A stretch of DNA of 64,000 nucleotides from an uncultured delta proteobacterium (GCA_963821645.1 CAWGEQ010000039.1:76402-140401); one strand, 5' to 3'. Shown: positions 6,109-32,489, counted from the first letter of the stretch. Notes: generated by a model from the sequence alone, not told the origin. Numbers and translations: made by a program.

Positions 6109-7308
6109 ATGCTGACCGATGATCAACTCCATCAATATGCCGAGGTGCTCTTCTGGGGATTGAAGACGGCCCGAAAGGACCGGTTCAAAAAAAAGGACCT
6201 TATCCTGATCCAGTATGACCCGGCGGCCGTCAAGCTGGCGGAAATCCTCTATGCGGGGATACTCGACCGGGGAATGAATCCGGTTCAGCGCATGGGCCTG
6301 ACCCAGGGGATGGAAACCGATTTTTATAAAACCGCGAAGGCCGGCCAGTTGGTCTTTATTCCGCCGGGAGATAAAGAATTATACGCGAATATCAACGGCC
6401 GGTTTTTCCTGAGGGCACCTGAATCGCTGACCCACCTTAAGGACATCGATTCGGCCCGGGTCGGAAAAGTCCTGGTTTCCCGAAAACCCTTGAGGGACAT
6501 CCTTGACCGACGGGAAGAAAAGGGGGCCTATAGCTGGACCCTCTGCACCTTTCCCACTAAGGAACTGGCCGGCCAGGCCAGAACGACCCTCCGTAAATAT
6601 ACCGACCAACTGATAACGGCCTGCTATCTCGACAAGGCGGATCCGGTCAGTGAGTGGATGGCCATCCATAAGAATGCCGGCAACATCAAAAAATGGCTCA
6701 ACGGCCTGAAGATCAAAACTCTCCACATCGAATCCTCCCATGTGGATTTGAAGATTACCCCCGGGGAAAGGAGGCGATGGAAAGGAATCTCCGGGCACAA
6801 TATTCCCAGCTTCGAAATGTTTTTTTCACCCGATTGGCGGGGGACCGAAGGAAACTATTATGCCAACCTGCCTTCCTTCCGGAGCGGGAATTTTGTTGAA
6901 GACCTGCACATCACCTTTGAAAAAGGTTCGCTGGTCAAGGTGAAAGCCAGGACCGGCGAAGATTTTACCCGAAAACAGATCGCCATGGACCCGGGCGCTT
7001 CCAGGGTGGGGGAGTTCTCCCTGACGGATAAACGTTTTTCACGGATCAACCGCTTTATGGCCGATACCCTTTTCGATGAAAATTTCGGCGGGGACCATGG
7101 GAATTGTCATCTCGCCCTCGGGGCGTCCTACACCGACACCTTTGATGGAAATCCGGCGGAGATGACCAAAGAATTAAAAAAGAAGCTGGGGTTTAACGAT
7201 TCCGCCCTTCACTGGGACCTGGTGAATACGGAGGACAAGACCGTGACGGCCCATCTAAAAACCGGGAAGAAACTGATTATTTATGAGAAGGGGATGTTTA
7301 CATTCTAA
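6109..7308 (+). CDS. Aminopeptidase, M29 (AmpS/AmpT) family
   Basis: NIPSFE, GEFSL, TLFDEN, HLALG and SALHWD motifs. Confidence 0.9.
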   Translation: MLTDDQLHQYAEVLFWGLKTARKDRFKKKDLILIQYDPAAVKLAEILYAGILDRGMNPVQRMGLTQGMETDFYKTAKAGQLVFIPPGDKELYANINGRFFLRAPESLTHLKDIDSARVGKVLVSRKPLRDILDRREEKGAYSWTLCTFPTKELAGQARTTLRKYTDQLITACYLDKADPVSEWMAIHKNAGNIKKWLNGLKIKTLHIESSHVDLKITPGERRRWKGISGHNIPSFEMFFSPDWRGTEGNYYANLPSFRSGNFVEDLHITFEKGSLVKVKARTGEDFTRKQIAMDPGASRVGEFSLTDKRFSRINRFMADTLFDENFGGDHGNCHLALGASYTDTFDGNPAEMTKELKKKLGFNDSALHWDLVNTEDKTVTAHLKTGKKLIIYEKGMFTF

Positions 7309-20110: not shown

Positions 20111-20722
20111 ATGAAGGAACAATGGGTAGGCATCGACCTGGCGGGAAGCAATCAAAGACCCACAGGATTCTGCCTGTTGGAGGGAAGAGAAGCACGAGTT
20201 TCGGTCCTCTACACCGACGAAGAAATTCTTGAAGAAATCGGCAGTCAAGTCAAAGCAGTGGCCATCGATGCCCCCCTGTCCCTTCCGAAAGGTCGATGCT
20301 GTCTCGAAGACAATTGCGCCTGTGTCGGGAAGGCTCACTTCCGGGCCTGCGACCTGGAGCTGCGGAAGATGAAAATCAAATTCTTCCCCATCACCCTGGG
20401 CCCCATGCGTAAGCTGACCTTAAGGGGCCTGGCCCTCAAAGAGAAGTTGGAGAAAAGAGGGCTCCTGGTCTTCGAGACCTATCCGGGTGCGGCCCAGGAT
20501 ATTTGGGGGATTCCCCGACAGAAAAACCCGAAGGGGTTACAGGAGGGTTTGAAACGGTTCGGGATCAAAGGAAATTGGTTGGAGTCTCAAGTAACCGCCC
20601 ATGAACTCGATGCCCTGACCTGTGCCATAGTGGCCCGGGATTATATAAAAAGGAAGGCCATGGCCATCGGCGACCCGGAAGAAGGCCTGATGATACTTCC
20701 GAAAAAGACGATCGCTCTTTAA
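20111..20722 (+). CDS. DUF429 protein (predicted RNase H-like nuclease)
   Basis: VGIDLAG, IDAPLS, ETYP and HELDA motifs. Confidence 0.85.
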   Translation: MKEQWVGIDLAGSNQRPTGFCLLEGREARVSVLYTDEEILEEIGSQVKAVAIDAPLSLPKGRCCLEDNCACVGKAHFRACDLELRKMKIKFFPITLGPMRKLTLRGLALKEKLEKRGLLVFETYPGAAQDIWGIPRQKNPKGLQEGLKRFGIKGNWLESQVTAHELDALTCAIVARDYIKRKAMAIGDPEEGLMILPKKTIAL

Positions 20723-20749: not shown

Positions 20750-20801
20750 GCCCAATACGAAGTTCACCGGGACGAAAGAGTCCGCTGGTTGTTTGTTGGG
20801 C
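20750..20801 (-). repeat. Degenerate attC site
   Basis: GCCCAAC...GGTGAACT...ATTGGGC on the minus strand. Confidence 0.5.
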
Positions 20802-21722
20802 AACGGTGGTCGACTTTTTTCCTTCTCCATTGTCTGCAGGCTGACCCCGCCCCGCTTGACTCACCCACGTCTTCACGGCCGTCACCGCGTAACGTCATGG
20901 TTTTGAATCCCCACAGGCCGATAACAATCACCGCGGCTATGGCTATAATCACCGTGTTGGCCGCAAATGTGCTCGTCGGCTAATGGGCGTCCATCTTGCT
21001 GAATGATTCCATAGGTTGCATTGAACATGAAATGCATGAGGACCGCTGACAAGATGCTGCGATGGGTATTGTTGTAAACCCACGTAGTAAGTACCGACAG
21101 AGACACAACCTGGAGACACCAAAGCCAGAAAAGAAAGGTGCCAAATCCCATCCCTTGTTGAGGAGTGCCTTTGATAAAGAAAAGCGGGAAGTGCCATGCT
21201 GCCCAGATAATACCAAGAATCAGGCTCGCAACCAGTGCGTTCCATTTGTTCTGAAGGCGGTCGAGGGCGAAACCACGCCAGCCGAGTTCTTCACCGAGGG
21301 GACCGCCGATAATATTTGCGCCAATGTAGAGCATCAGGGCAGCAGGCTGCATGAGAGTCTGCTCCGCCCCTCGGAGTGGCGGAAGCGCACCTCCGAAGAG
21401 CTTATCTGCCAGCAGACCTAGACGCCAACAAAAAGGGGAACAGACAAATGATAACAGCGTACCACTTCAATCCAATCAACTTGAAGCTGACAACGCGCTT
21501 CCAGAAATCATCCCTACCGGCCCTGTCTGAGGTTAAATGGGTCAGTAGAATCCCTACCAGGCTTGGTACGGAGCAGGCAATAATCAAAGCAGGGACCGGA
21601 CCGTTTACCGTTTTACCGGATAGGATGTAGGGAACCCAGATAGCCCAAGAAAGACCATAGGTTAGTCCAAAGAAAAGCCAGGGAAATCTTGCGCTCATAT
21701 AGGTTGACTGTCGATCGGTCAA
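20764..21722 (-). CDS. CPBP/CAAX (Abi-family) intramembrane protease; two +1 frameshifts as sequenced
   Basis: GEELGWRG, WAAWH and HFMFN motifs across three overlapping ORFs. Confidence 0.82.
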
Positions 21723-21896
21723 ATCTCAGAGTCTCCATATTCTACAAGTCAAGGAAGGGGCACCCGTTGTCGACAGATGGGTCGCCGCGCTCCCTCCATC
21801 CTAAGGCAGATACCGGCGGAGACTTCCTCAATGCTCGTTCAGGAAAGGTTTCGCCATCGGGTCAATCGGCACTCTGTTTTGCAGAATGGTCCAATG

Positions 21897-21975
21897 CGCC
21901 AATGGGCGTTGTTCCGGAGCACGCAGCTTGCGGGGCCGAAGGACCATGACAGCGGTGCCAATGACCTGGTTGAGC
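21897..21975 (-). repeat. Degenerate attC site (~90-bp family)
   Basis: GCTCAAC-CAGGTCATTGG...CCTTCGGCCCCGCAAGCTGCGTGC...ATTGGCG; homologous to 24331-24422 and 26888-26978. Confidence 0.6.
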
Positions 21976-22027
21976 AACGACTGCGTCGTCGCCAGCGGCG
22001 TTGATGGCCAGCCAGCTTCCGTACCCA

Positions 22028-22090
22028 GCTTCTCCTTTGATGTGGGGCGCTTTCATCCCCTACTCTATGCCGGTTTATCCCGGCGCTTTC
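22028..22090 (-). mobile_element. Probable 5' fragment of a group II intron
   Basis: GCGCCGGGATAAACCGGCATAGAGTAGGGGATGAAAG resembles recalled 5' domain-I starts of bacterial group II introns; no RT ORF or domain V seen. Confidence 0.45.
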
Positions 22091-22105
22091 GGTCCGACCC
22101 CCATC

Positions 22106-23002
22106 TCACCATCTCAGTAGCAAATCAGGATTCAGGTCAAGCGGTTTATACTTCCATTGTCCGTCGACCTTGACGCCGAATTCCAGTGCCTTTCTGTCGG
22201 GGGATAGGATGACGCCTTCGGTAACGTCCTCATAGCTGGGCACCTTGAATTCGGGAGCCTTCCGCGTCTTGCTGTCGGCGATAGAGAAAGCCATGAAGTC
22301 GCGGGTTGACGGTTCCCAATAGATCACTTCTCCGTTTCGAACGCACTGGTAATGGGCCGAGGTGGCAACCTTCACATAATCCCCAGCCGGGGTTCGGGCC
22401 CATATCTCGGGGATCAGGCCGCTATTCTTGTACGCAGAAGAATTCAACGAGTTGAATTCTTTGGCTTCATTTTGGGACATTGTCACAAAAATCAACGTAC
22501 CGTTGGTGTCGATCAGATAAATATAGCCAAGCTCCCTGCCGCGCATAGCTAAATCCGACTTTAAGTTGAGGACTTCAGCTTTATCAGATTTGAAGTCAAG
22601 CAATAAATGTTTCACTCCCATTCGGAACGGCTCTCCACGCAGTTGTCCTCCTTGAGAAATCAATGCCTTACTACCTTTTAGTGCGAGGATGGTGAATGGC
22701 CCGCTGCCTGGTTGCCATTCTGTATTTTTCTCACGCCGTATGATTTTGACCTCCCGAGTCTGGAGGGCATAGACCCCCAGCAAGTTTATGTCCATAACGT
22801 ACTCTGGAACGCCGCCGTCAGGGAATGCCCGCCAGCCGGCGGCCCTCCGATAGGTGAAATGATGAAAAGAGAAAACGATGGTACGTTTGTCATCTGCAAG
22901 CTGAGCGCTGACAAATGCGCTATGGTCCTCCAATGGTCCATATCCTGCCCAACAGGAGGTCACGAAGGCCAGTACGCTGATAACAAAAATGACAATCTTC
23001 AT
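22106..23002 (-). CDS. Secreted hypothetical protein (cassette)
   Basis: Signal-like MKIVIFVISVLAFVTSCWA; ATG about 10 nt after the GTTGGGA core site. Confidence 0.7.
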   Translation of the reverse strand: MKIVIFVISVLAFVTSCWAGYGPLEDHSAFVSAQLADDKRTIVFSFHHFTYRRAAGWRAFPDGGVPEYVMDINLLGVYALQTREVKIIRREKNTEWQPGSGPFTILALKGSKALISQGGQLRGEPFRMGVKHLLLDFKSDKAEVLNLKSDLAMRGRELGYIYLIDTNGTLIFVTMSQNEAKEFNSLNSSAYKNSGLIPEIWARTPAGDYVKVATSAHYQCVRNGEVIYWEPSTRDFMAFSIADSKTRKAPEFKVPSYEDVTEGVILSPDRKALEFGVKVDGQWKYKPLDLNPDLLLRW

Positions 23003-23011
23003 TTCAGTTGC

Positions 23012-23075
23012 TCCCAACGACGCGGATCACAGGCCGTGAGGAAACAAGCGGTCCTCGTGCAGCCGCAGGTCAGAA
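23012..23075 (-). repeat. attC site
   Basis: TTCTGAC-CTGCGGCTGCAC...GTGATCCGCGTC-GTTGGGA, 64 bp, directly after the NYN stop codon. Confidence 0.72.
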
Positions 23076-23077
23076 GA

Positions 23078-23833
23078 TTATTCCTTGGGCTTCTTGCGTT
23101 TGTCGCGAATATAGATCGTTTTAGAATGTCCGTCACGCTGGACTCTTTCATCCATATCAAAGAGGTTGATGGCTATGGCGAGCTCCCCAAGCTTGGTGAA
23201 GCCGTAATTCCGAGGGTCGAACTCTGAGGCCTGCTTGGCGATATTGCTGCCCACGGCACCCAAATGAGCCCACCCACTCTCGTCGGAAGCCGCCTCAACA
23301 GCACTTCTGAGAAGAGCTACCAGTTTGGCATCTCTTTTCAGTTCATTTGCCGTTTTAGGTTTGACGGCTGACCCGGCATCCTCCTGAAACCTAAGAACTT
23401 CAGTGAAGATGAATTTGTCACATGCGGATACAAAAGCTTTTGGAGTCTTCTTCTCTCCAAATCCGTACACGAGCAAACCTTCCTCTCTAATCCGGGAGGC
23501 AAGACGAGTGAAATCGCTGTCACTCGATACTAAACAGAATCCGTCAAAACGTTTCGTATAGAGCAAGTCCATTGCATCTATGATCATTGCGCTGTCTGTT
23601 GCATTCTTCCCCACAGTATAACGGAACTGCTGAAATGGCTGGATGGAGTGTTCAAGCAGGAGGGACTTCCATCCGCTTAGACTCGGTGTAGTCCAGTCGC
23701 CATAAATACGCTTCACGCTTGCAACGCCGTACTTGGCAACTTCTGACAGGAGCCCTTCCGTTATCGATGGCTGCGCGTTGTCTGCATCAATAAGCACAGC
23801 AAGCCTGCTTTGTGACGTTTCACTTACACTCAT
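23078..23833 (-). CDS. NYN (LabA/DUF88 PIN-like) nuclease with C-terminal OST-HTH/LOTUS domain (cassette)
   Basis: LIDADN, GKNATD, IDAMD, SSDSDF and FDPRNYGF motifs. Confidence 0.92.
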   Translation of the reverse strand: MSVSETSQSRLAVLIDADNAQPSITEGLLSEVAKYGVASVKRIYGDWTTPSLSGWKSLLLEHSIQPFQQFRYTVGKNATDSAMIIDAMDLLYTKRFDGFCLVSSDSDFTRLASRIREEGLLVYGFGEKKTPKAFVSACDKFIFTEVLRFQEDAGSAVKPKTANELKRDAKLVALLRSAVEAASDESGWAHLGAVGSNIAKQASEFDPRNYGFTKLGELAIAINLFDMDERVQRDGHSKTIYIRDKRKKPKE

Positions 23834-23938
23834 ATGATATTCCTTTCAGTGCTTCTAACGATTAGGGGCGCTGTGTTACTGAGACCGACCAAGGAAACAT
23901 TCTTCGATCCGCCGGCTCTTAAGGACAAACTCCACGAG

Positions 23939-24244
23939 CTATTCAATGACCGTTCCTTTGCCGGTCTCCCGATACTCAAGCTCGACATGTTTGACGAACG
24001 CGATTCTCCCCCAGGAATTGGCTGCAAATCCATGGGACGCGCACCAAGTGGTAAATGTTTCCGGATCGATGTCTGCGCGGATAGCGATATTGCCACTACC
24101 TTTAATTAATTGACATTCCCTTCCGACAAGAGCTTTCCAGTCTTCAAAACTGGCGGGCATATTTTCCGGATCGGTAAAGATCGAAAGCGCCTTGCGGTAA
24201 GTAGCCTCGTCCTTGAACCAGGCAATTCCTATAACATCGTGCAT
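23939..24244 (-). CDS. Hypothetical protein (cassette)
   Basis: ORF starting MHDVIGIAWF with AAGGAAG upstream. Confidence 0.6.
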   Translation of the reverse strand: MHDVIGIAWFKDEATYRKALSIFTDPENMPASFEDWKALVGRECQLIKGSGNIAIRADIDPETFTTWCASHGFAANSWGRIAFVKHVELEYRETGKGTVIE

Positions 24245-24330
24245 TCTGTCACTTCCTTTCGTTCTCTCTTTTCGATATGATGTCACGAGGGCTATTTAAA
24301 TATATCCAGCTATGTGCATCATTTTTACCC

Positions 24331-24422
24331 ACCTAATGCGGCATTAACTCCTGGTATAAAGTTTGCGGGGGCTGAAGGCCCATACGAGCGAGAGGCTTCG
24401 ACGTCCAATGGCTTGATTGGTG
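24331..24422 (-). repeat. Degenerate attC site (~90-bp family)
   Basis: CACCAAT-CAAGCCATTGGAC...GTTAATGCCGC-ATTAGGT. Confidence 0.6.
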
Positions 24423-24596
24423 CCGCCGTATGTCGCTGCCGACCGCTCCCGCCGCGTTCGGGTTCTGCACGATGAAAGAAACTGCCCTATACACCTCAGC
24501 TATGAAAGACATACCGACGCCCGGGGCTTCTTCCTCGTAGTAGCGGACTGCTTCCCGAAATTCCTGGTCGCTTCGGGAAGGAACTCCGTTTTGATG
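24423..24596 (-). pseudogene. Truncated RelE/ParE toxin remnant
   Basis: Translation ...EFREAVRYYEEEAPGVGMSFIAEVYRAV...NPNA; start codon lost and C-terminal half missing. Confidence 0.7.
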
Positions 24597-24822
24597 AGAT
24601 ATCCGCTATTGCGCGACGGAAGACTTCATCGGAGGGAATTCCTTTCGTCTTGCCTTCATGGAACTCTTTGAGGCGGCGTTCAGCCTCTTCCATCCATAGC
24701 TGTTCAACTTCGGAGTCAAAGGGCTCATCTAAACTCAAGAGGAGCTTTCCTGCCAATTGAGCACGTTCTTCAAGGGTCAACTCCATCGCCGTGGATAAGA
24801 TTTCATCGCTTTTCTTGGACAT
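24496..24822 (-). CDS. Addiction-module antitoxin (TIGR02574-like), with read-through C-terminus
   Basis: LTLEERAQLA..LL.SLD...W.EEAERR motif; GAAAGGAG RBS. Confidence 0.82.
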   Translation of the reverse strand: MSKKSDEILSTAMELTLEERAQLAGKLLLSLDEPFDSEVEQLWMEEAERRLKEFHEGKTKGIPSDEVFRRAIADISSKRSSFPKRPGISGSSPLLRGRSPGRRYVFHS

Positions 24823-25061
24823 ACCCTGATTCTCCTTTCATTAATACTGGTATCGCTACATCGGCGCCGACCAGGACATGGTCACGATAGAGTGATTTTA
24901 TTCGGTCCTCATTTTTTCGGTGATCGGGTGAAAGCTATGGTTCAGCCTTCCGTTATAAATTGGCATAGGTATCAGAAAAGGAACCACTTTCTAATAGGTT
25001 CTTTAAAATAGCATCTATATTCTCAGTTATGTTCTTAACGCCATTGTTGTTTTTTGGTTTA

Positions 25062-26143
25062 GGGGATGTTGTTTCTGAATTGATTTAAACAATTAATTTC
25101 TTCCCAATTATTTCGTTTCTTCTTCGGAATTGGCCAACCGGCAAACGGCCGAAGTCGTCACACCTAAAAAACGGGCAACCTCGGCCCCCTGATATCTTAT
25201 CTCTCTGACAGCCGTCCGGCAAAACAGTCTTCTGGCTTTCGAAATTCTTCTTTGCCGGCCGCCGGATCTTAATTCTTTCACCGTTATCCCCGCTTCTTTT
25301 GATATCTCGTCAGCCAACTCCATTAGGGCTTTAACTTTGCCCGACAATCTTAGCGTTTCTTTCGCCTTTTGTTCTGCCTCAGAAAATAAATCCAGAATAA
25401 ATTCACTGCTGCCTAGAATTCTCTCATCCGAGGCCGCTCGATTGTCTTTCCTCCTCAAAGACAACACTGCCGACCATCCCCCATGGCTCCGAATCAAGCC
25501 TCCTCCGACTAATTCAGGTCTTTTTCCCAAGGCAATCCCTTCGGACAAAAATTGCTCATAAAGCAAAAGAGCCCTTTTTTTCTTTGTACTGAAATAGGAG
25601 AGAATGGCCTCAATATCCTGCCAATCCCGCTTAACTCCTCCCATGATGGCGGAATGGCCGGTCCAGGGATATCTTTTCAGTTCTTCCATTCCGGGAACCA
25701 TCTTCTTTCTCAAAGGGTTTAAATGTATATACCTGGTCAGTTCCAAAAGATAAGGATCGTCTTCACAGACAATTGACTTATATCTATTCTGAAAAAGATG
25801 GCCAAACCGTTTGTGACGTCGGTTAAAATTTATCACATACCCTGTCAGCAATTTTCTCATCCCCGTTGAAAGGGGGCGGTCTTTCGTCCTGATCAACAGG
25901 TGGAAGTGATTCGACATCAAAGCCCAGGCATAAACAGCAAAATACCCCTCCCGGCAAAGTTCGGCTAGCCGTTCTATAAAATCTTTCCGATCAAAACGAT
26001 TCCTGAATATATCGGCTCTCTCGATCCCCCTCCCCATTACGTGGTGCAAGGTCCCTGGTGAATCAAGTCGTGCTTGTCGTGGCATGTTTTAACCTTATCT
26101 CCCCCAAAAGGCTCTGTCAAGTCAATTCAGAAACAACGTCCCC
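25062..26143 (-). mobile_element. RAYT element bounded by 22-bp inverted repeats
   Basis: GGGGATGTTGTTTCTGAATTGA (25062-25083) versus TCAATTCAGAAACAACGTCCCC (26122-26143); one mismatch. Confidence 0.75.
25108..26085 (-). CDS. REP-associated tyrosine transposase (Y1/HUH) with C-terminal DnaA-like HTH
   Basis: MPRQARLD, HHVMGRG, LMSNHFHLL (HUH), GHLFQNRY, YIHLNP; terminal EVARFLGVTTSAV. Confidence 0.9.
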   Translation of the reverse strand: MPRQARLDSPGTLHHVMGRGIERADIFRNRFDRKDFIERLAELCREGYFAVYAWALMSNHFHLLIRTKDRPLSTGMRKLLTGYVINFNRRHKRFGHLFQNRYKSIVCEDDPYLLELTRYIHLNPLRKKMVPGMEELKRYPWTGHSAIMGGVKRDWQDIEAILSYFSTKKKRALLLYEQFLSEGIALGKRPELVGGGLIRSHGGWSAVLSLRRKDNRAASDERILGSSEFILDLFSEAEQKAKETLRLSGKVKALMELADEISKEAGITVKELRSGGRQRRISKARRLFCRTAVREIRYQGAEVARFLGVTTSAVCRLANSEEETK

Positions 26144-26239
26144 CTTTCCAGGGGCAAGGGATGCCCGCTTTAAACTCTTTTATCTATGTATCCTCGTTGC
26201 CCCAATCTGCAAGGATTGTAAGGATATAAGAAGTCCTTT

Positions 26240-26644
26240 CTATTTCCCCGGCCTTTCATAGGGAATAATGGAGACAACCTCCGTTATACCGGAATTGACC
26301 ACAACAGTTTTGGGAATGAATTTACCTGCTTCCGGAGACTTGATCGCTTCCTTGACAATTTGAGGGACCTTTGCCCACCCCTCTTTGCAGATGTAGACGA
26401 TGACAGCACTGCCCTTAAATCTCTGGATAATATTGATGCTCGCTCTAGAGGCAAGAGGGCAATCGGTGTCCTTATTTGAATAAAGGAAAACGATCTGTTT
26501 GTCATCAGCCTTAGCCTCTTCCTTGGCCTGCTGCAACTGGTCTATTCCATAGACGTAACTGGGTATATCGAAGGCTGCCGAGACCAATGACGCCGAAAAT
26601 GTCAAGATCAATAGAACCAGTAGAACAATGCTGCACCTTTTCAT
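26240..26644 (-). CDS. Secreted hypothetical protein (possible thioredoxin-like fold)
   Basis: Signal peptide; DCPL and IPKTVVV segments. Confidence 0.6.
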   Translation of the reverse strand: MKRCSIVLLVLLILTFSASLVSAAFDIPSYVYGIDQLQQAKEEAKADDKQIVFLYSNKDTDCPLASRASINIIQRFKGSAVIVYICKEGWAKVPQIVKEAIKSPEAGKFIPKTVVVNSGITEVVSIIPYERPGK

Positions 26645-26887
26645 AAGCCCCCCTTTATCTTGTGGCCATGCACTCCTAAGAAAGTCTTTTCCAAACCTCT
26701 ACATAACCGTAGGCAGTACCTTATTGGATAAGGCTTTTCGTGTTGTTGATTGTTTCCGGGAGTAGTTAGCCTATTTTGTCTGTTTCTGGAAGAATCCTAT
26801 CCATTCAATGGCTGCCTCCATCCCTGCGTTCCCGCCTTCTCTCCGGAGTTCTCTAATGTCCCCGTATTCCTTCATGTCAGTGTCGTT

Positions 26888-26978
26888 GCCCAATGTGGCG
26901 TTGGCCTGTGGCACGCAGCTTGCGGGGTCGAAGGCCCATGCAAGAGAATGACATCGGTGTCCAATGGCCTGGTTGGTG
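26888..26978 (-). repeat. Degenerate attC site (~90-bp family)
   Basis: CACCAAC-CAGGCCATTGGAC...GGCCAACGCCAC-ATTGGGC. Confidence 0.62.
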
Positions 26979-27070
26979 CCGCTGCGGCGGCGCCGACCGG
27001 GACAGGGCACAGACAGGGGATCGAACCGCTTGTTATACAGCACTTTCTTTGTCCTCCTTCTCGAGAGCAA

Positions 27071-28066
27071 CTAAAAAGGTAGTTCATCCTCTTCGGCAAC
27101 GGGCGTTTCGGGCATCGCCCCCTTCGGGAGCGATAAGTTCGTGACGACATAAAGATTAAGAATATCGTCCCTGTCCATGAAGAGGAGCTGACTGCGTCTT
27201 GAAGAATCGAGCTTGTTGCCAAGCCAGTTCCGGGCGGCTTTGGTGATCTCCCCAGCTGCAACGATGATGGCGTGATCCACAAGGACGCGCTTTCCGATCT
27301 CAGGGTCGAAGATCTCGTGCCCCAGCATCATCATGACCTGGTTATGGATCACAGCGACATTGGCATTGCCCTCTTTGGTAATGCCCGAAGAGTCAATTTT
27401 TCCATTCTTCGCTTGGATGCCGAAATAGAGAACATGCTGCGTCGGGATGGTGAATCTCATCCACACATCCTTGCCGTACTCCAGTGCCTTATCTTTGTGC
27501 CCGGTGGCCGTGATGCGGTGGAATCCCAACTGCCGGAACAGGGGCAGTAGAACCTCCTCAATGAGTTCGTCCTCAGATGCTGTGTCTAAATAGGCAAGGA
27601 GCCGTTCCCTTCTCCTCAGCTCGGAGGCCGAGAACGGACGGTGTGGGTCCGTCGCCATCGATACGATGGTCTTTGTTGCGATATGCCGCAAATAGCACTG
27701 CCTATCTTCAGCGTAGAAGGCCTCCAAACCTTCCCGTGCCATGGCGCTATTGAGTAGAGCCAGCGCACCCGGTCTATCACTTTCTTCGTTCAGCGCGTCG
27801 GCTGGGTCCATCAAGGCCTGTATAACGCGCGAGAACGTCGCTGGTGGTGTCTGAGCGTTTGGATGAGGCTCCGCCAAGATCTGCTGAAGGGTATTGGCGA
27901 CCCAATAGTTGCGCGTGGAGCGGTCATGGACATATTCAGTATCGCAATCCTGAAAGAAGCGCGTTAGATAGCTGCTGCTGCGATAAACGAAAAAACTCTC
28001 CTCCGCCTTAAAATTTCCGCAGATCATATCCGCAATGGCCATTAGGGTACGCTGTTTGAATTCCAT
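27071..28066 (-). CDS. Putative restriction endonuclease (Mrr-like D...QAK catalytic domain) with a distinct N-terminal domain
   Basis: LFRQLGF...EYGKD...GIQAK matches the Mrr_cat pattern; the N-terminal YRSSSYLTRFF segment recalls AbiJ-type N-terminal domains. Confidence 0.62.
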   Translation of the reverse strand: MEFKQRTLMAIADMICGNFKAEESFFVYRSSSYLTRFFQDCDTEYVHDRSTRNYWVANTLQQILAEPHPNAQTPPATFSRVIQALMDPADALNEESDRPGALALLNSAMAREGLEAFYAEDRQCYLRHIATKTIVSMATDPHRPFSASELRRRERLLAYLDTASEDELIEEVLLPLFRQLGFHRITATGHKDKALEYGKDVWMRFTIPTQHVLYFGIQAKNGKIDSSGITKEGNANVAVIHNQVMMMLGHEIFDPEIGKRVLVDHAIIVAAGEITKAARNWLGNKLDSSRRSQLLFMDRDDILNLYVVTNLSLPKGAMPETPVAEEDELPF

Positions 28067-28146
28067 ATCGCGATCTAACCGTGCCCTCTGTGCTAAACGG
28101 GTAGATGCGCGCTACGTCCGGAACGCACGTAGCGACACGCTCCGGC

Positions 28147-28203
28147 GCATAATGGGCCCGGTTCACCTGCGGACCTGCGGCAGGTGCATCCGCGTTGTTC
28201 TGC
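28147..28203 (-). repeat. attC site of an ORF-less cassette
   Basis: GCAGAAC-AACGCGGATGCACC...GGTGAACCG...ATTATGC. Confidence 0.65.
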
Positions 28204-28270
28204 CGCGCTTGTGCGGCGGGACAACCGGGTGGAAAACCGGCGCCCCTTCTCGCCGACGCGCAAATACCGG

Positions 28271-28334
28271 CGAGAACGTTAGGGCTCACCAGGAGCCGGA
28301 TTTTTCGGCGATCCGGTAGAGCCGCTTGTTAGAT
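28271..28334 (-). repeat. attC site (mrr cassette)
   Basis: ATCTAAC (contains the mrr stop)-AAGCGGCTCTACC...GGTGAGCCCTAAC-GTTCTCG. Confidence 0.82.
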
Positions 28335-29260
28335 GCTTTCATCAAAATAGTCAGCATCGATCTTCTTTACCGGATACTGCGACACAATCGATACCCCAAC
28401 ATCATTTTCTATCATCAGATTGGTGAGTTGCTCCCCATCTATCAACACAATTTTGCTTCCAATTTGTGAAACATAACTGCGAGCATCATCGGTAAATCTG
28501 GAAGTCGTAATGAATATGCCTTTGTTTGCTTTCTGAGCTTGTAGCGCACCGGCAAACTGCATAACATCTGGCCTTCCAACGGGATTAGTGTCCCATCGTT
28601 TTGCTTGAATGTAGACGACATCCAGTCCTAGTTTGTCTTCCTTTATAATTCCATCGATTCCTCCATCTCCGCTTTTCCCAATGGCTTTTCCTGCGTCGGA
28701 GCGTGAACCTCCATAACCCATCTTCACGAGCAACTCGACAACGGCACGTTCGAAAAAGGATGGAGAAGATTTTTTAAGTTTTGCGAGTAGTTCAGAAGCA
28801 AGCTCATCGCGTAGATTTTCATAGGCGGCTTCCAATGCCTCGGAAGGAGTAGCTATTGAAATTTCAGGTGGTACTTCCTGGGGGACTCTCTTTCTCACCA
28901 CTTCGTGTTCCTTTCAGTTGTTGGAACTCAATGAACTCAGGATACTCTTTGAGAAGTTTTACATTGATAGCCTTTGGCTGCTTTTTGAGAAGCTCCTGCC
29001 CGCGTGGTGTAATTCGAAAGTAACCTCTCCGAGTGGCTTCAAGCAGACCAGCTTTCTTCATGTAGGTAGATGCCCAACCTACTCTATTGACAAACGTAGA
29101 TTGAAATACCGCTTGGAAGCATCTCTTTGAGATCTTCATCTGTCAGACCAAGTTCTTTTGCCAGGACTTCGACGGCCTCGCCCGTGGATGTTTCGTCTTT
29201 TTTCTCTCCGGCGAATCGAAGAAGTGGCAACATCAAGCTCTGATAATCAGGAATGGCCAT
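28329..29260 (-). CDS. mrr: Mrr type IV restriction endonuclease; two +1 frameshifts (~29105, ~28880) as sequenced
   Basis: MAIPDYQSLMLPLL, NRVGWASTYM, DGGIDG, YIQAKRW and GIFITTS motifs. Confidence 0.92.
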
Positions 29261-29279
29261 GTATCAATCTCCTTTTTGC

Positions 29280-29338
29280 ATATAACGTTACGGCTGAGGC
29301 GCGCCTTTTTTTGCGTCTCCTCCAGCCGATTGTTGGCC
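29280..29338 (-). repeat. Canonical 59-bp attC site
   Basis: GGCCAAC-AATCGGCTGGAGG...CCTCAGCCGTAAC-GTTATAT, with paired L boxes and an extrahelical G. Confidence 0.88.
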
Positions 29339-30007
29339 GATAATTTTTTCCAGATCAATAATAATCGACGTAACTCGTTTTGAGAGCCTGCTGTCTTTCA
29401 GCCCCAGGCACTTTTTGGCAAGACGTATGGCACCTTGCCATTCTTCCCGAGAAGCCGGAATTTCGACGTCGGTTGCATTGGCAAAATTAACAAAGACCAA
29501 ATAAGCGTCTCTCTTGTTGATATCTGCCAAGTAATATAGGTGAGCTAACCGGTTTGCCATTTGGTAAAGTGGGCTGTACCAAGGTGCATCCGGGTTCGCT
29601 CGGAAGGCTGTTTTGGCTTCATCCAGTCTTTTCTCTATCAGGGGAAGCGAATTGGCCGAAGCTTTGCTTCGATAATCAACAGCCTCCTCAATATGCGCCT
29701 TCGCTTCAACAAGTATCAGTTTCCCTTCTTTTGTGCAGGCAAGGGCGTCCCAGCGTGGTCCACTTTTTGGCCAAAACTCCTGTAACGGCATTCGCAGATC
29801 GTTTACACCGAGTTGTTCCAGGAACTCTTGGTCGTAATACTCAGCATAATCGTCGTCTCGAATGGGTGACCGCCATTCGATATCCGTTGTGCCCCATCCG
29901 AATGCCTTCGAAATGCAGTTATTCAGGTAGATCGAATGATCATTGACCATCACGCGAAGCCAATGTTCGCTTCGCTTTGTAGATAGTGGTCTTGATCGTC
30001 TGGGCAT
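29288..30007 (-). CDS. Putative PD-(D/E)XK nuclease (first cassette)
   Basis: WDALA...ILVEAKAH motif and YQMANR; start MPRRS after GGAGGTAGGAG; the ORF reads into the attC. Confidence 0.62.
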   Translation of the reverse strand: MPRRSRPLSTKRSEHWLRVMVNDHSIYLNNCISKAFGWGTTDIEWRSPIRDDDYAEYYDQEFLEQLGVNDLRMPLQEFWPKSGPRWDALACTKEGKLILVEAKAHIEEAVDYRSKASANSLPLIEKRLDEAKTAFRANPDAPWYSPLYQMANRLAHLYYLADINKRDAYLVFVNFANATDVEIPASREEWQGAIRLAKKCLGLKDSRLSKRVTSIIIDLEKIIGQQSAGGDAKKGAPQP

Positions 30008-30019
30008 ACTCCTACCTCC

Positions 30020-30081
30020 GGCTAACAACATATTGATTAGTTTCTTGTCAATATCAGGAAATTCAGAGATTGTCAATATCA
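30020..30081 (-). other. Candidate attI/promoter region
   Basis: Core GTTAGCC preceded by two perfect 12-bp direct repeats TGATATTGACAA (30045-30056, 30070-30081) in AT-rich DNA; no attC hairpin. Confidence 0.5.
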
Positions 30082-30260
30082 AATATAATTTTTATCGATA
30101 TATCTATTTGATATTATTATTTTAATTATCTTGTTCCTTTATTCTTACAACCTCACAGTAAATTACTTTACAGTTGCGGAATCAGGTTGTTTATTTCTTA
30201 CATTTTACTAAAGAGCAGAGCTCTTCAATAAAACCGACCTGACTTTTTAAAATCTTTTTT

Positions 30261-31686
30261 GGTCCGTGAGCTTACACGGTGGGTAACCCCAACATATAGT
30301 GATTGATAGATCTGAATCTGGTAATGAGCCAGGAACAATAGACAAAGAAAGAAAAATAAGGTAATTCTGACCTCCTGAAAGAATTTGAACAGGAGGTTGC
30401 GATGGAAGACAAAGAATTGTATGCCACCCTGCTGGGGATCAAGCATCCCTGGCGAGTAGATAAAGTTAAGCTGGATATGGATAAGAACCGAGTAGATGTT
30501 TGGGTTGCCGAGTTTAAGGGTATTCAGTGGAAATGCCCGGTCTGTGGACAAGCCGGTCCTATCTATGACCATGACGAGGAACGAATTTGGCGGCATCTGG
30601 ATACCTGCCAGTGCCAGACTTTTATCCATTCCCGGATGCCCAGAGTAAGCTGCTCGGTCCATGGTGTCCAGCAGGTGCCAGCTCCCTGGGCCGAACCGGG
30701 ATCCCGGTTTTCTTTGGCTTTTGAACGGCGGATGATCGACACCCTGAAGGAATGCGACATTACCGGTGCCCGCCGGTTGCTGAATTCTGGTTGGAAGGAA
30801 GTTTGGGGAGCCCTGGAACGAGCGGTGAAGCGGGGGCTTAAACGAAAAGATCGGCGGATTCCGGAATATCTTAGTATTGATGAGAAGGCGTTTGCCAAAA
30901 GGCACAAGTACGAGACCCTGGTCTGTGATTTGAAAGGTGGAACGGTGGAATTCGTGGTCGATGAACGATCGCAAAAGAGTCTCGAGACGTATTATCGTCA
31001 GTTTGAGGAAGAGGAATGCCGTTCGGTGAAGGCCGTGGCCATGGATATGTGGGACCCTTATATCGCTGCCACCCGGGAATGGTTGCCTCAGGCAGACATC
31101 GTTTTTGACCGATTTCATGTGGTTCGACTGGTTACGCAGGCCGTCGATAAAGTGCGTCGTCAAGAGCATAAGCTGCTTACAGAACAAGGTGATGAAACGC
31201 TTAAAAAGACCCGTTTTCTTTGGTTGGCCAATGAAGAAAACATCCCGGCCTGGCGCCGTGAGGAGTTTGCCGAACTTCGGCAGATCAACTTGAAGACCAG
31301 TCGGGCCTGGGCGCTTAAGGAATCGTTGCGTCCCTTTTGGGATTATAAATACGCCAAATGGGCAGAAGGCTTTTTTGACCGGTGGTATTATTGGGCTACC
31401 CACTCCCGTCTCAGTCCGATGGTCAAGGCGGCGAAGACCCTTAAAACTCATTTGCCGAACCTGTTGACCTTTTTTAAGCATCGTATCACCAATGCGGTGG
31501 CGGAAGGCCTTAATAGCAAAATCCAAATGGTTAAGCAGATGGCGTGTGGTTTTCGTAATCGTGAACATTATAAGACAGCCATTTACTTTCATTGTGGTGG
31601 TTTAGACCTTTATCCTCAGCCAAAGCCGTATTCCTTATAATGGGTCACTATATGTTGGGGTCACCCACCGTGAAGGATGAAGCGCC
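30261..31686 (+). mobile_element. ISL3-family insertion sequence
   Basis: GG termini; 28-bp subterminal IR CACGGTGGGTAACCCCAACATATAGTGA (one mismatch); flanking direct repeat 30197-30260 / 31687-31751. Confidence 0.92.
30402..31640 (+). CDS. ISL3 transposase
   Basis: Zinc finger CPVCG...WRHLD...CSVHG; SIDE, MDMW, FDRFH and EGLNSKI motifs. Confidence 0.95.
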   Translation: MEDKELYATLLGIKHPWRVDKVKLDMDKNRVDVWVAEFKGIQWKCPVCGQAGPIYDHDEERIWRHLDTCQCQTFIHSRMPRVSCSVHGVQQVPAPWAEPGSRFSLAFERRMIDTLKECDITGARRLLNSGWKEVWGALERAVKRGLKRKDRRIPEYLSIDEKAFAKRHKYETLVCDLKGGTVEFVVDERSQKSLETYYRQFEEEECRSVKAVAMDMWDPYIAATREWLPQADIVFDRFHVVRLVTQAVDKVRRQEHKLLTEQGDETLKKTRFLWLANEENIPAWRREEFAELRQINLKTSRAWALKESLRPFWDYKYAKWAEGFFDRWYYWATHSRLSPMVKAAKTLKTHLPNLLTFFKHRITNAVAEGLNSKIQMVKQMACGFRNREHYKTAIYFHCGGLDLYPQPKPYSL

Positions 31687-32148
31687 CTTTACATTTTACC
31701 AAAGAGCAGAGCTCTTCAATAAAACCGACCTGACCTTTTAAAATCTTTTTTTTGGCCTGCTCTATGGAGAACCAGGCCGCCCGGTCAACCTCCGGGAATT
31801 GGGCTTCCTTCCGGACCGGGGAGGCCATTCCATCGTGAAGGTGTTGCTTTTAATCGAATCGGCAGGGCAATCGCCTTCAAAGGCCCAGGCGCTGATTACT
31901 TTTCCGCCGGGCTGTTTCAGCGGCGACAAGGGCATAAAATCACCGGCCGCCTCGCAGCCGGTCTCTTCTTTAAACTCACGCCTGGCTGCGGTCAAGGGGT
32001 CTTCTTCGTCGGTATATTCCCCCTTAGGGATCGACCAGGCCCCTTCATCCTTTTTAGCCCAAAAAGGGCCTCCGGGATGAACGAGAAAAACCTCAAGCTT
32101 TAAATCCCGGTAACGAAACATGAGCAACCCGGCACTTTTTTTCCCCAT
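31661..32148 (-). CDS. NUDIX-family hydrolase; -1 frameshift near 31803, C-terminus runs into the IS end
   Basis: HPGGPFW, WSIPKGE...AARREFKEETG, WPPRSG, then FPEVDRAAWF in the shifted frame. Confidence 0.85.
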
Positions 32149-32360
32149 TATCCGGCTCCTGATAAGCGGGCGGAAATTCCGGTCCGTTGGGTCTTTTCGA
32201 CCCCGGCCCGTTCATTAGCTTAGGGCAACAGACCTTTCTTGACAAGTCAATTCCAGTGAACGATAGGCCTCGGTGAAACTCTATTTCCCTACCATCAGAA
32301 ATACATAATTATCCCCCTTGTCTTATTCGGTTATCCTGATAATATAATAAGGTTAGGTTT

Positions 32361-32489
32361 AACAGGATGCTCAAAAAGGTCCAGATACAAGGCGCCCGAA
32401 ATTCCGAGGAATGAGACGTACATAGAAGTACGTCGCAATGACGAAGAATGAGGGCAACGCAGTAGATGGGCCTTTTTCAGCAACCTGTT
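32361..32489. repeat. ~130-bp MITE-like element
   Basis: Terminal IR AACAGGATGCTCAAAAAGG / CCTTTTTCAGCAACCTGTT; internal GACGTAC...GTACGTC hairpin; no credible ORF. Confidence 0.65.

Follow-up and report, generated by a model that had tools for sequence, protein, structure and literature searches.

A probable CALIN, mostly fossil and of mixed content, in an uncultured delta proteobacterium

Could a run of integron cassettes with no integrase beside it be a working store of defence genes, and how would it have come to lie where it does? The question is raised by a locus within a 64,000-nt stretch of DNA from an uncultured delta proteobacterium (the window, from whose first letter all positions are counted), which an earlier note, made from the sequence alone, had read as an integrase-less integron cassette array loaded with defence-type nucleases. 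In the account of Cury et al. (2016, NAR, PMC4889954), a cluster of attC sites lacking an integron-integrase is termed a CALIN. The locus at 20750-30136, on the minus strand, is very probably such a chromosomal attC-bounded cassette cluster without a nearby IntI, mostly fossil and of mixed content. The array consists of genuine integron cassettes, but they are largely worn out, and arrays of the CALIN type are already well known.

attC sites and the missing integrase

The array lies on a contig of 141 kb (C39) of the genome labelled G000 here. Its ORFs are co-oriented on the minus strand and are separated by about 11 attC sites or pieces of sites (Table 1); the earlier note had this layout right, but its count of about nine palindromes was too low. 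All three pairs of complementary cassette ends that it named are present in the sequence, i.e. GTTAGCC (30020-30026) with GGCCAAC (29332-29338), GTTATATGC with GCATCTAAC (28328-28336), and GTTAGAAG (23853-23859) with CTTCTGAC (23069-23075).

Three covariance models free of window sequence were used, namely R1 from 3 attCs, one of which lies beside and is divergent from a partial intI (G009:C102), R2 from 14 sites, and R3 from 6 attCs that belong to ORF1-family cassettes of other genomes. Each model is lineage- or family-specific and recognises its own attC type only. In the 64 kb, on both strands, each yields exactly one strong match, located at one of the two sites for which the earlier note had proposed such a check, attC1 and attC2. 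Among the 27 listed matches of R3, attC1 is the only one below E 0.1, and it is not among the 16 listed for R2; attC2 reaches only 9 bits (E 3.5) under R3. For the attC1 family, the consensus fold from RNAalifold has 17 pairs, of which 5 show compensatory changes, and on the '' arm a single base bulges out; the bottom-strand hairpin of attC1 has -10.8 kcal/mol (z -1.83) and the hairpin of attC2 -13.5 kcal/mol (z -2.12). The canonical AAC...GTT triplets are kept in these two of the about 11 sites only, and therefore an integrase acting in trans could still excise no more than cassettes 1 and 2. The terminal site is the second-best match of R2, with 13.6 bits and E 0.39, which is not significant alone. 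Intact counterparts of the truncated attC of cassette 4 (CGCATAAC ... GTTAGAC and others) are found 3' of homologues at three other loci (L099, L100 and L106), and R'' of the NYN cassette attC reads TTCTGAC here versus TTCTAAC in G009, that is, GAC versus AAC. The 5' part of the long palindrome (28178-28246) is 88% identical to G000:C48:62445-62512, upstream of the Mrr cassette on C48, and this counterpart ends A/TTAGATGC.

As the earlier note had stated, there is no intI at either end of the array, and none was found on the contig: of the 9 matches to the TIGR02249 profile in the 53 contigs, none is above the cut-off and none is on C39, while tblastn of a relative's IntI against C39 gives no match at E<=10. 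This absence holds for the assembly only, because it is 76% complete and in 53 contigs. Within the genus, IntI above the TIGR02249 cut-off occurs in 6 of 14 genomes (6/21 in the order). With the attC models, the G/TT borders described below and the contig lacking IntI, the reading as an integrase-less cassette array is borne out. As in the CALINs of PMC4889954, two or more attC sites are present, neither IntI nor an intI pseudogene lies within 10 kb, the array has an IS as its neighbour (as do 38% of CALINs in that account), most cassettes have no known function, and the attC sites are heterogeneous; unlike in them, the majority of the sites here have decayed or have a non-canonical ATT end, and were called with lineage- or family-specific models.

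Table 1. Features of the array and its head in the window, in the direction of the minus strand (a slash within a sequence marks the junction)
Feature	Position	Strand	Basis or remark
ISL3-family insertion sequence between NUDIX gene and array head	30275..31672	+	DDE_Tnp_ISL3 2.4e-78
AT-rich leader upstream of cassette 1, ends ...TATGTTG/TTAGCC	30025..30136	-	G012:C68 match
Cassette 1 gene ORF1, 239-aa PD-(D/E)XK-fold protein, intact	29288..30007	-	cassette 29286-30025
attC1, canonical (GGCCAAC ... GTTATAT, 59 nt)	29280..29338	-	R3 65.3 bits, E 5.5e-15
Cassette 2, Mrr type IV restriction pseudogene, three ORFs (29084-29260, 28864-29139, 28329-28901)	28329..29260	-	Pfam
attC2, canonical (ATCTAAC ... 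GTTCTCG, 64 nt)	28271..28334	-	R1 41.5 bits, E 7.5e-10; R2 49.2 bits, E 2.7e-11
Long imperfect palindrome ending ATTATGC; near-empty cassette or degenerate attC	28147..28254	-	read from sequence
Cassette 4 gene, 331-aa nuclease, D200...Q218-A-K220 core, C-terminal EEDELPF, intact	27071..28066	-	Foldseek, alignment
Truncated attC of cassette 4, TGTATAAC-AAGCG-GTTCGATCCCC, fused to type B unit leader	27016..27039	-	read from sequence
Type B copy i, R''-like GCACCAAC ... CATT/GGGC	26888..26997	-	repeat family; aligned with 27 other copies
134-aa ORF, N-terminal signal peptide (read from translation)	26240..26644	-	no Pfam, PADLOC, NCBIfam or PHROG match
RAYT/IS200-like Y1 transposase element, ORF 25108-26085	25062..26143	-	25-nt inverted repeats as bounds
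Partial type B leader	24848..24881	-	in antitoxin cassette
Antitoxin cassette, Unstab_antitox ORF 24496-24822, decayed toxin	24423..24881	-	Pfam 3.2e-17
Type B copy ii, ends CATT/AGGT	24331..24443	-	repeat family; alignment of copies
101-aa ORF, phrog_4753 (unknown function)	23939..24244	-	4.2e-15; no Pfam, PADLOC or NCBIfam match
Degenerate site ending GTTAGAA; NYN cassette left border	23853..23925	-	non-folding remnant, -5.4 kcal/mol, z +1.09
NYN + OST-HTH/LOTUS gene, intact	23078..23833	-	NYN 1.2e-37, OST-HTH 1.1e-15, phrog_37744 8.4e-69
NYN cassette attC, R'' mutated, R' GTTGGGA	23012..23075	-	fold -10.8 kcal/mol, z -1.12
298-aa putative lipoprotein	22106..23002	-	no Pfam, PADLOC, NCBIfam or PHROG match
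Type B copy iii, most decayed copy	21896..21996	-	repeat family; alignment of copies
CAAX/CPBP (Rce1-like) protease, split, ORFs 21402-21722 and 20882-21352	20882..21722	-	Rce1-like 7.4e-18, second ORF
Terminal degenerate attC, GCCCAAC ... ATTGGGC	20750..20801	-	adjoins convergent DUF429 gene at array end

Cassette borders and the origin of the array

Four cassettes (Mrr, NYN, ORF1 and QAK) recur elsewhere with a homology break at the G/TT crossover. The Mrr copy on C48 diverges directly past the G of the attC1 GTT, and the homology of the NYN cassette with G009 and G019 begins exactly at GTTAGAAG and, with G009, stops exactly at ...CGTCGTT. In these two genomes (G009:C27 and G019:C9, 93-94% identity) the NYN cassette sits at two junction sequences that are found just upstream of intI in G015, G012 and G011. 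Homologues of ORF1 with the identical attC type and a GTTRGC start are present in 6 other genomes (6/14 loci inspected), the ORF1 cassette is also found behind a different attC in a Thermodesulfobacteriota genome, and QAK genes have G/TT-type starts and/or attC ends at 7 of the 22 metagenome loci inspected. From such exact borders we infer that the cassettes would have been delivered singly by IntI-type recombination, through folded attC bottom strands and at the G/TT point. Since then the array has largely decayed, the other sites now being mutated, truncated or of ATT type, with three pseudogenes and two transposable-element insertions.

The array occupies a variable position, with a NUDIX gene on one side and DUF429/PolX on the other. 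In G014 and G018 the flanks are 80-95% identical and enclose other cassettes, about 2.2 kb at most, the antitoxin cassette alone being in common. Because the cassettes of these genomes differ between common flanks, the array is not a fixed operon, and the identical gene order in distant relatives, which the earlier note had named as counting against its reading, is not what is seen.

Then, how was the array formed? The origin to which we lean, at a little below an even chance, is that an integrase in trans inserted cassettes at a secondary chromosomal site, with later ones joining at resident attC sites. Insertion by IntI1-3 at genomic GWT sites is reported to occur at high frequency (Loot et al., 10.1101/2022.09.11.507474), and such secondary-site (attG) insertion accounts for cassettes and small arrays that lie apart from integron platforms. 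In 13 of the 14 genomes of the genus, R1-type sites are scattered over many contigs as singletons and small clusters, and at least four further such clusters are present in G000 (C48, C36, C49 and C50). However, the genomic consensus is GWT in that report, and an attC with its own ATT crossover triplet is not described in the part of it drawn on here. This origin also leaves the conserved leader unexplained, and none of the relatives examined shows the ancestral empty site.

At its head, another array (G012:C68) matches the leader over 113 nt with 80% identity; the homology stops at the identical G/T junction, next to which a type B unit stands in G012. A consensus scan found no minus-strand sigma-70-like site in the leader. 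By eye, TTGACA-17 nt-TATTGA can be read there. It is conceivable, though rather unlikely, that the integron was once complete and its intI was deleted, in which case the 113-nt leader ...TATGTTG/TT would be the remnant of attI and Pc. The conservation of the leader at the head of the G012 array, its end at a recombination junction and the resemblance of that end to AT-rich junctions (…GAATAACTT/GTTA) that adjoin intI in relatives are consistent with such a deletion, and loss of intI is one of the CALIN routes given in PMC4889954; but the whole contig holds no intI fragment, G014 and G018 with the same flanks are likewise without intI, the sequence next to intI in relatives differs from the leader, and in G012 the leader comes after a RelE-type pair, not intI.

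Nuclease cassettes and the defence question

The three leading genes are restriction-nuclease-like, in agreement with the earlier note. For ORF1, which has no match in Pfam, PADLOC, NCBIfam or PHROG, the 832 homologues show invariant D87, E101, A102 and K103; the AF2 model has a pLDDT of 88, the VIA-align matches are nearly all PD-(D/E)XK nucleases (Z 7.2-5 in the top rows), and the best Foldseek E is 0.02. In cassette 2, Mrr_N 1-45, Mrr_N 47-86 and Mrr_cat (Pfam) fall in three frames, i.e. two frameshifts are present, and PADLOC mREase_IV (4.7e-66) covers profile positions 140-315 only. The frameshifts of the pseudogenes could in principle be assembly errors, but both Mrr frameshifts recur in a 12%-diverged paralogue (G000:C48:62565-63584, 88% identical), which has more of its own, and the long neighbours PolX (580 aa) and the ISL3 transposase are intact. 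Judged by these reading frames, both copies of Mrr, in the array and on C48, are dead.

The QAK protein of cassette 4 has no Pfam or PADLOC match, and its Foldseek matches include MspJI (3.1e-4) and AspBHI (5.3e-4), both with probability 1.00, and FokI (9.4e-3). It has 3950 homologues, of which the 120 listed bear names from several phyla and mostly show 73-91% identity; D200, Q218 and K220 are invariant in the family. The catalytic motif of MspJI is D...QxK. As in the type IV enzymes MspJI and AspBHI, there is a D...Q-x-K triad, and the C-terminal half matches their catalytic domain, whereas the helical N-terminal ~160 residues matched nothing, Pfam Mrr_cat gives no match, and the SSB-like acidic ...LPF tail is a further difference. 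The C-terminus EEDELPF compares with EEDIPF at the end of the host SSB, and 15 of 23 aligned family members have acidic residues and an [ILVF]PF end; the tail is a putative mimic of the SSB tail.

Could the locus, then, be a defence island under active maintenance, in which an integrase encoded elsewhere in the genome shuffles the cassettes and the uncharacterised ones are new defence genes? We consider this doubtful. Phage defence encoded by integron cassettes has been reported ("Mobile Integrons Encode Phage Defense Systems", 10.1101/2024.07.02.601719; PMC12614218), and the small single-gene nuclease-type cassettes of unknown function here are similar; unlike in that report, however, the sole database-recognised defence gene is a pseudogene, and the array is chromosomal, integrase-less, in an uncultured Desulfobacterota-type genome and known from sequence alone. 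The defence-type content holds for the three leading nuclease-like cassettes, but with Mrr a pseudogene, the CAAX protease split and the toxin truncated it is less than had been claimed, and the PADLOC run proposed in the earlier note recognised the Mrr fragment and none of the other 10 of 11 array proteins. Five cassettes (secreted/membrane, transposase, unknowns) are without a nuclease or NTPase signature, and no defence signature was found in the 134-aa protein, the lipoprotein, NYN-LOTUS, the 101-aa protein and the transposase. The content of the locus differs between close relatives, hence turnover was recent, the assembly lacks 24% of the genome, and IntI is frequent among members of the genus; against this, the 53 contigs hold no IntI, most sites are without AAC/GTT, and ORF1 and QAK never occur together (0/17 and 0/80 loci). 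What survives of the proposal concerns ORF1 and QAK, both intact and single-gene, which are plausible candidates for stand-alone anti-phage or anti-foreign-DNA effectors.

Type B units and other elements

The type B unit is attC-like, ORF-less and about 110 nt long, and ends in ATT instead of GTT. Across the genus it has 84 matches, in 13 of 14 genomes. Covariation supports no pairs of its hairpin, the observed pairing being reached by 117 of 500 shuffles, and the thermodynamics are mixed (z -4.8 to +1.6). That the locus is not an integron array but an ordinary variable island, with terminators, REP elements or MITEs as its palindromes, is highly improbable: a RAYT-like transposase lies within it, type B units are many, highly similar and MITE-like, and several sites fold poorly, but independent attC models match both canonical sites, one R1 training site is beside intI, homology breaks at G/TT in four cassette families, in relatives the NYN cassette occupies junction sequences known from next to intI, and 18 of 68 R1-type sites are <5 kb from a type B unit.

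The NYN/LOTUS gene, toxin-antitoxin remnant and CAAX protease of the earlier note are confirmed as NYN plus OST-HTH, Unstab_antitox (both Pfam) and Rce1-like, respectively. The CPBP_MmRce1 profile is matched at positions 43-96 by the first protease ORF and at 140-237 by the second. The antitoxin cassette is also present in G014, G018 and G010 (89-93% identity); in its toxin ATG has become ATC, 1 nt is deleted versus G014, and type B copy ii stands in place of the 3' half. For the lipoprotein, an Atlas feature search points to PD40/TolB-like clusters (0.92), a weak lead only. The ISL3 element, bounded by inverted repeats of 28 nt (96% complementary), is absent at the orthologous locus of G014. 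The RAYT-like transposase matches Y1_Tnp (4.8e-11) and a DnaA_C HTH, with REP_Tyr_transpos at 57.6 bits, under the cut-off of 80; the inverted repeats of the element (25062-25086 and 26119-26143) are 92% complementary, and a 95%-identical copy in G010:C242 begins at the inverted repeat.

The cassette array and its flanks

The array lies between a NUDIX gene and a DUF429 gene, and consists of minus-strand ORFs with palindromic or repeated elements in between (see the table below). The gene calls of an earlier note were recovered by Pfam, namely Mrr_N and Mrr_cat, NYN and OST-HTH/LOTUS, Unstab_antitox and an Rce1-like CAAX protease, and all three complementary cassette-end pairs that it quotes occur in the sequence. 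In addition, Pfam identified two transposases, one of Y1 (IS200/RAYT-like) type within the array and one of ISL3 type at its head.

Coordinates (window positions) of the array and of features in and around it
Feature	Position	Strand	Remark
DUF429 gene	20111-20722	plus	Convergent flank of array, then PolX
Cassette array	20750-30136	minus	
Degenerate terminal site	20750-20801		
NYN-LOTUS cassette	23016-23859		
ATT-ending palindrome	28147-28254		
attC2	28271-28334		Mrr cassette
attC1	29280-29338		Cassette 1
63-nt direct duplication	30198-30260 and 31689-31751		
ISL3 inverted repeats	30275-30302 / 31645-31672		
NUDIX gene	31762-32148	minus	Flank of array
~130-nt repeated element	32358-32489		Upstream of molybdopterin oxidoreductase gene
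Molybdopterin oxidoreductase, two ORFs	32538-33626 and 33977-34780	plus	Gap ~350 nt

Two canonical attC sites, attC1 and attC2, are about 1 kb apart, where IntegronFinder defines a CALIN, that is, an attC cluster lacking an integron integrase, by at least two attC sites within 4 kb. Neither an integron integrase nor an intI pseudogene was found nearby. The intI gene adjoining attI and the array, which marks a complete integron, is absent here and likewise from the orthologous loci of two relatives, G014 and G018. The array had been proposed to be integrase-less, and this holds: the locus is a CALIN with a neighbouring IS in the sense of the definition given by Cury et al. (2016; PMC4889954). 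CALINs are a common and well-described class, of which the locus is an ordinary example, so that the array as such changes little.

The flanks are kept in G014 (contig C6) and G018 (contig C84), with PolX at 95% and NUDIX at 89-91% in both and DUF429 at 85% in G014, but only about 2.2 kb or less of other cassettes lies between them. These carry a PIN/antitoxin pair and a HicB-like gene, and only the antitoxin cassette is common with the window. A fixed operon, with identical gene order in distant relatives, was the alternative that the earlier note had allowed for, and it does not agree with these different cassettes. Since the flanks are shared but the cassettes differ, the locus is a cassette hot spot with recent turnover. 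The DUF429 gene, which matches the PADLOC candidate family PDC-S44 (1.2e-12), is missing from G018, where PolX adjoins the antitoxin cassette. Beyond the NUDIX gene, the molybdopterin oxidoreductase gene is split into two ORFs, and the repeated element ahead of it occurs with 85-96% identity in well over 100 places in all 14 genomes of the genus; it is probably a MITE or a REP-like repeat.

An integrase serving the array from elsewhere in the genome had also been considered. In the assembly under study (G000), a MAG of 53 contigs and 3.03 Mb that is 76% complete, none of the nine matches of a six-frame TIGR02249 search passes the cut-off, and none is on contig C39, of which positions 76402-140401 are the window. 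The best of them, which is Xer-like, scores 74.6 bits vs the cut-off of 265, and tblastn with the 408-aa IntI of G014 gave no match to C39 at E<=10. Among 21 genomes of the order, mostly drafts like the other genomes compared here, six have an IntI over the cut-off, all within the 14-genome genus. Most of these genes are at contig ends, as expected where arrays break assemblies. The IntI open frames of the genus (L009-L013, L017-L022) have 389-524 aa vs the 315 positions of the family model, being extended at the N-terminus up to about 100 nt or less from a conserved ...TCATTTATAATAG|GTTA junction.

The 113 nt ahead of cassette 1 are 80% identical to an array head in another relative (G012:C68), where the similarity stops at the same junction, and this head sequence is beside intI in neither place. 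That ISL3 caused the loss of the integrase is ruled out, because an IS and intI are both missing from this junction in G014. The 3' end of the NUDIX gene is duplicated, with 63 nt in direct orientation (97% identical) on either side of the ISL3 element and its inverted repeats, and G014 has this stretch as a single copy. The target duplication of ISL3 elements is about 8 bp, and the one seen here is far longer. As to its origin, the array may derive from secondary-site insertion, of the kind described in a preprint by Loot et al. (10.1101/2022.09.11.507474), or from loss of intI. More integrase-less cassette clusters were observed in G000, at C48:62400-65750 (L037), C36 (~47.1-55.8 kb), C49 (~14.5 kb) and C50 (~53.5 kb). 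The C48 cluster, whose end adjoins a cold-shock gene, contains a second dead Mrr copy, BrnT/BrnA-like pairs (by eye), three R1-type attC sites (see below) and two type B units.

attC sites and mobile cassettes

Rfam has no attC model, and with its models, at the gathering cut-off and at E<=5, nothing relevant was found in the region; only a tRNA passed in the window. Lineage-specific covariance models built from sites outside the window were used, with site curation partly by eye: R1 from three sites (on the G000 contigs C48 and C36, plus a site on G009:C102 divergent from a partial intI), R2 from 14 sites of seven genomes, and R3 from six foreign sites of the attC family of cassette 1 only. 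With R1, attC2 is found at 41.5 bits (E 7.5e-10; next best E 0.42 among 21 matches listed), and with R2 at 49.2 bits (E 2.7e-11). The second match of R2 is the degenerate site exactly at the distal end of the array (13.6 bits, E 0.39), and neither model gives anything else convincing in the window. With R3, attC1 is found at 65.3 bits (E 5.5e-15; next best E 0.31 among 27 matches listed). Consequently, the two sites whose failure to match would have refuted the reading of the earlier note are both matched by models built without window sequence. R1 and R2 are blind to attC1, and R3 gave attC2 no score above noise; the models are family-specific, and no single one covers the whole array.

The attC1 site belongs to another family than attC2; its family travels with cassette 1 and is present on six homologous cassettes in other genomes, from a Thermodesulfobacteriota genome, a Spirochaetaceae MAG, two Desulfurivibrio, a delta-proteobacterial MAG and a Syntrophus MAG. 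For the seven sequences, RNAalifold gives an AAC/GTT R box, an unpaired spacer, an L stem and a one-base bulge on the '' arm, with compensatory changes in five of 17 pairs. In the textbook attC fold, the R''/R'/L''/L' consensus comprises AAC/GTT boxes, a variable loop and a '' arm with an extrahelical base. The R''/R' boxes, L stem and extrahelical base are found in both attC1 and attC2, while the other sites (about nine) show them partly or not at all, with GAC, ATT or truncations. Two other approaches were abandoned: a custom-written scanner for AAC...GTT hairpins lacked specificity (787 matches genome-wide, arrays not enriched at 5-kb resolution), so that a stricter version served solely to choose candidate sites, and a MAFFT alignment of seven diverse attC sites was inconsistent with structure.

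Four cassettes, Mrr, NYN-LOTUS, cassette 1 and QAK, are recognisable as self-moving units with G|TT borders. For example, a copy of the Mrr cassette with 88-89% identity is located at G000:C48:62565-63584, and the two diverge directly before TTA(T/G)ATGC on the left and directly after ...CTAACG on the right. The NYN-LOTUS cassette is 93-94% identical in G009:C27 and G019:C9. It is preceded by ...TCATTTATAATAG|GTTAGAAGC in G009 and by ...TTAGAATAATTT|GTTAGAAGC in G019, and the same two junction sequences are located just upstream of intI frames with an N-terminal extension in G015:C14, G012:C47 and G011:C166. At the right border, the homology with G009 stops at ...CGTCGTT. The G009 locus (L031, rc 6880-7060) is another array head without integrase, in which the cassette is at an intI-proximal-type junction and the upstream gene is an ABC-transporter permease, not intI.

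In the window as in the Thermodesulfobacteriota genome, cassette 1, which encodes the 239-aa ORF1, starts with GTTAGC(C/T)GGAGGTAGGA, and in the latter it immediately follows another attC. Its borders support mobility in six of the 14 loci inspected. Only one of 17 ORF1 loci has another window cassette gene nearby: in Desulfurivibrio dismutans (L063, 1102-1653), a Mrr_cat homologue 56% identical to that of the window is about 850 nt upstream of the ORF1 homologue. For QAK, the gene of cassette 4, 22 of 80 metagenome loci were inspected. The seven closest (L099-L104, L106) have GTT-type starts and/or R''-type ends, with mutually complementary ends, GTTGGGTGG with CCGCCCAAC, in three of them; the other 15, all at <=79% identity, have no cassette-type ends by eye.

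The type B unit

The array also contains an attC-like element of about 110 nt, termed type B, in three complete copies and a partial one; 84 matches to it are spread over 13 of the 14 genomes in the genus. In an alignment of 28 copies, the homology ends sharply after ...GCCGCATT, the end triplet being ATT in 26, and the sequence that follows differs in every copy, often leading straight into an RBS and ATG. The left end has two forms. One is G|T(T/C)GGCGCC, which is complementary to the R''-like GC(A/G)CCAAC within that unit; in the other, this sequence comes after a 24-nt leader that itself follows another GTT. Within 5 kb of a type B unit, we found 18 of the 68 R1-type attC matches (12 of 62 outside G000), for which the chance expectation, roughly estimated, is fewer than one. 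The ATT ending is also seen in the palindrome beside attC2, in the terminal site of the array and in two of 14 R1-type sites in relatives.

The fold of well-preserved copies combines a long bulged hairpin with a small R''/start hairpin, and two of four reach z values of -3.8 and -4.8. A simple hairpin, as drawn from the consensus itself, has no clear support from covariation, which is no better than in shuffles (117/500), or from energy, with a median of -6.7 vs an MFE of -18.6 kcal/mol and positive energies for the window's own copies. Taking borders and distribution together, we tentatively suggest, as a possibility on the unlikely side, that type B is an ORF-less mini-cassette consisting of attC only, which multiplied in the genus with crossover at A|TT instead of G|TT. 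The G|TT core triplet of attC is regarded as invariant. If the integrase of the genus recombines type B, the core triplet rule would be looser than assumed, and attC could then spread as a selfish element seeding new cassette-capture sites. This ATT-ending, putatively attC-only unit allows the strictness of the integron crossover triplet to be probed directly.

Decay of the array and its intact candidate nucleases

Judged from its sequence, the array is decayed. A Mrr type IV restriction endonuclease has Mrr_N and Mrr_cat in a single intact ORF, and here the Mrr domains are in three frames with two frameshifts. Both frameshifts, and four more frame changes, are present in the C48 copy, and therefore the gene was already dead at duplication. 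The CAAX protease is split; the toxin beside the antitoxin has lost its ATG and, vs G014, 1 nt by deletion, and a repeat has taken the place of its 3' half; and the flanking NUDIX gene is frameshifted vs G014 about 30 codons before its end. Among the sites, the attC of NYN has GAC in the window and AAC in G009, that of QAK is cut after L'', and the one preceding NYN has lost its folding. Two transposable elements, a RAYT-like one with 25-nt inverted repeats and ISL3, are in or at the array. The lesions are read as real rather than as assembly noise because long neighbouring genes are intact, which in a MAG falls short of proof.

The array had also been read as a defence island built of cassettes, and integron cassettes are able to encode phage defence according to a preprint (10.1101/2024.07.02.601719). 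Two intact proteins, one of probable PD-(D/E)XK and one of MspJI-like nuclease fold, speak for this reading, whereas PADLOC recognises only the Mrr fragment, one of the 11 array proteins searched, and several clustered recognised defence systems were not found among them; the reading as a defence island served in trans is only partly supported. The first intact protein, ORF1, has 832 homologues and no family. D87, E101 and K103 (D87...E101-A-K103) are invariant, and the last ~14 residues, encoded by attC1, are disordered. With the structure model (pLDDT 88), nearly all top rows of VIA-align are PD-(D/E)XK nucleases, although Z is at most 7.2, middling by the tool's own measure (below 8). Nucleases of this fold have an alpha-beta-beta-beta-alpha-beta core carrying a D...(D/E)xK triad. 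The structural matches include NucS, BstEII, PaqCI, SfsA and Can2, and the best Foldseek E is 0.02.

The second, QAK (331 aa), has 3950 homologues, of which the 120 listed are for the most part 73-91% identical and come, by their source names, from several phyla, and a search of representatives gave 958 clusters at E<=0.001. It resembles MspJI in having a PD-(D/E)XK-type domain with a D...QxK triad: D200, Q218 and K220 (D200...Q218-A-K220) are invariant in 23 sequences, and Foldseek matches MspJI (3.1e-4, probability 1.00), AspBHI (5.3e-4) and FokI (9.4e-3). MspJI-like nucleases have at their N-terminus an SRA-like domain that binds modified bases. The first ~160 residues of the QAK model form helices and are not explained by the structural matches listed. 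The C-terminus, EEDELPF, looks like a mimic of the SSB tail, as the host SSB (G000:C12) ends in EEDIPF and acidic residues followed by [ILVF]PF form the C-terminus of 15 of 23 aligned relatives. PDB sequence searches with ORF1 and QAK gave nothing useful.

A two-gene system of ORF1 and QAK was rejected: the two occur together in none of 17 and none of 80 loci, respectively, and are therefore independent cassettes. Two intact and very widespread putative single-gene nucleases without family annotation travel as integron cassettes and are cheap candidates for phage-challenge tests; testing is worthwhile for these two and for the ATT-type unit. As for the remaining genes, NYN-LOTUS and a 101-aa ORF match PHROGs of unknown function, and the translations of the 134-aa and 298-aa ORFs begin with a signal or lipoprotein peptide, as judged by reading them; the 298-aa ORF has a weak PD40/TolB-like lead.
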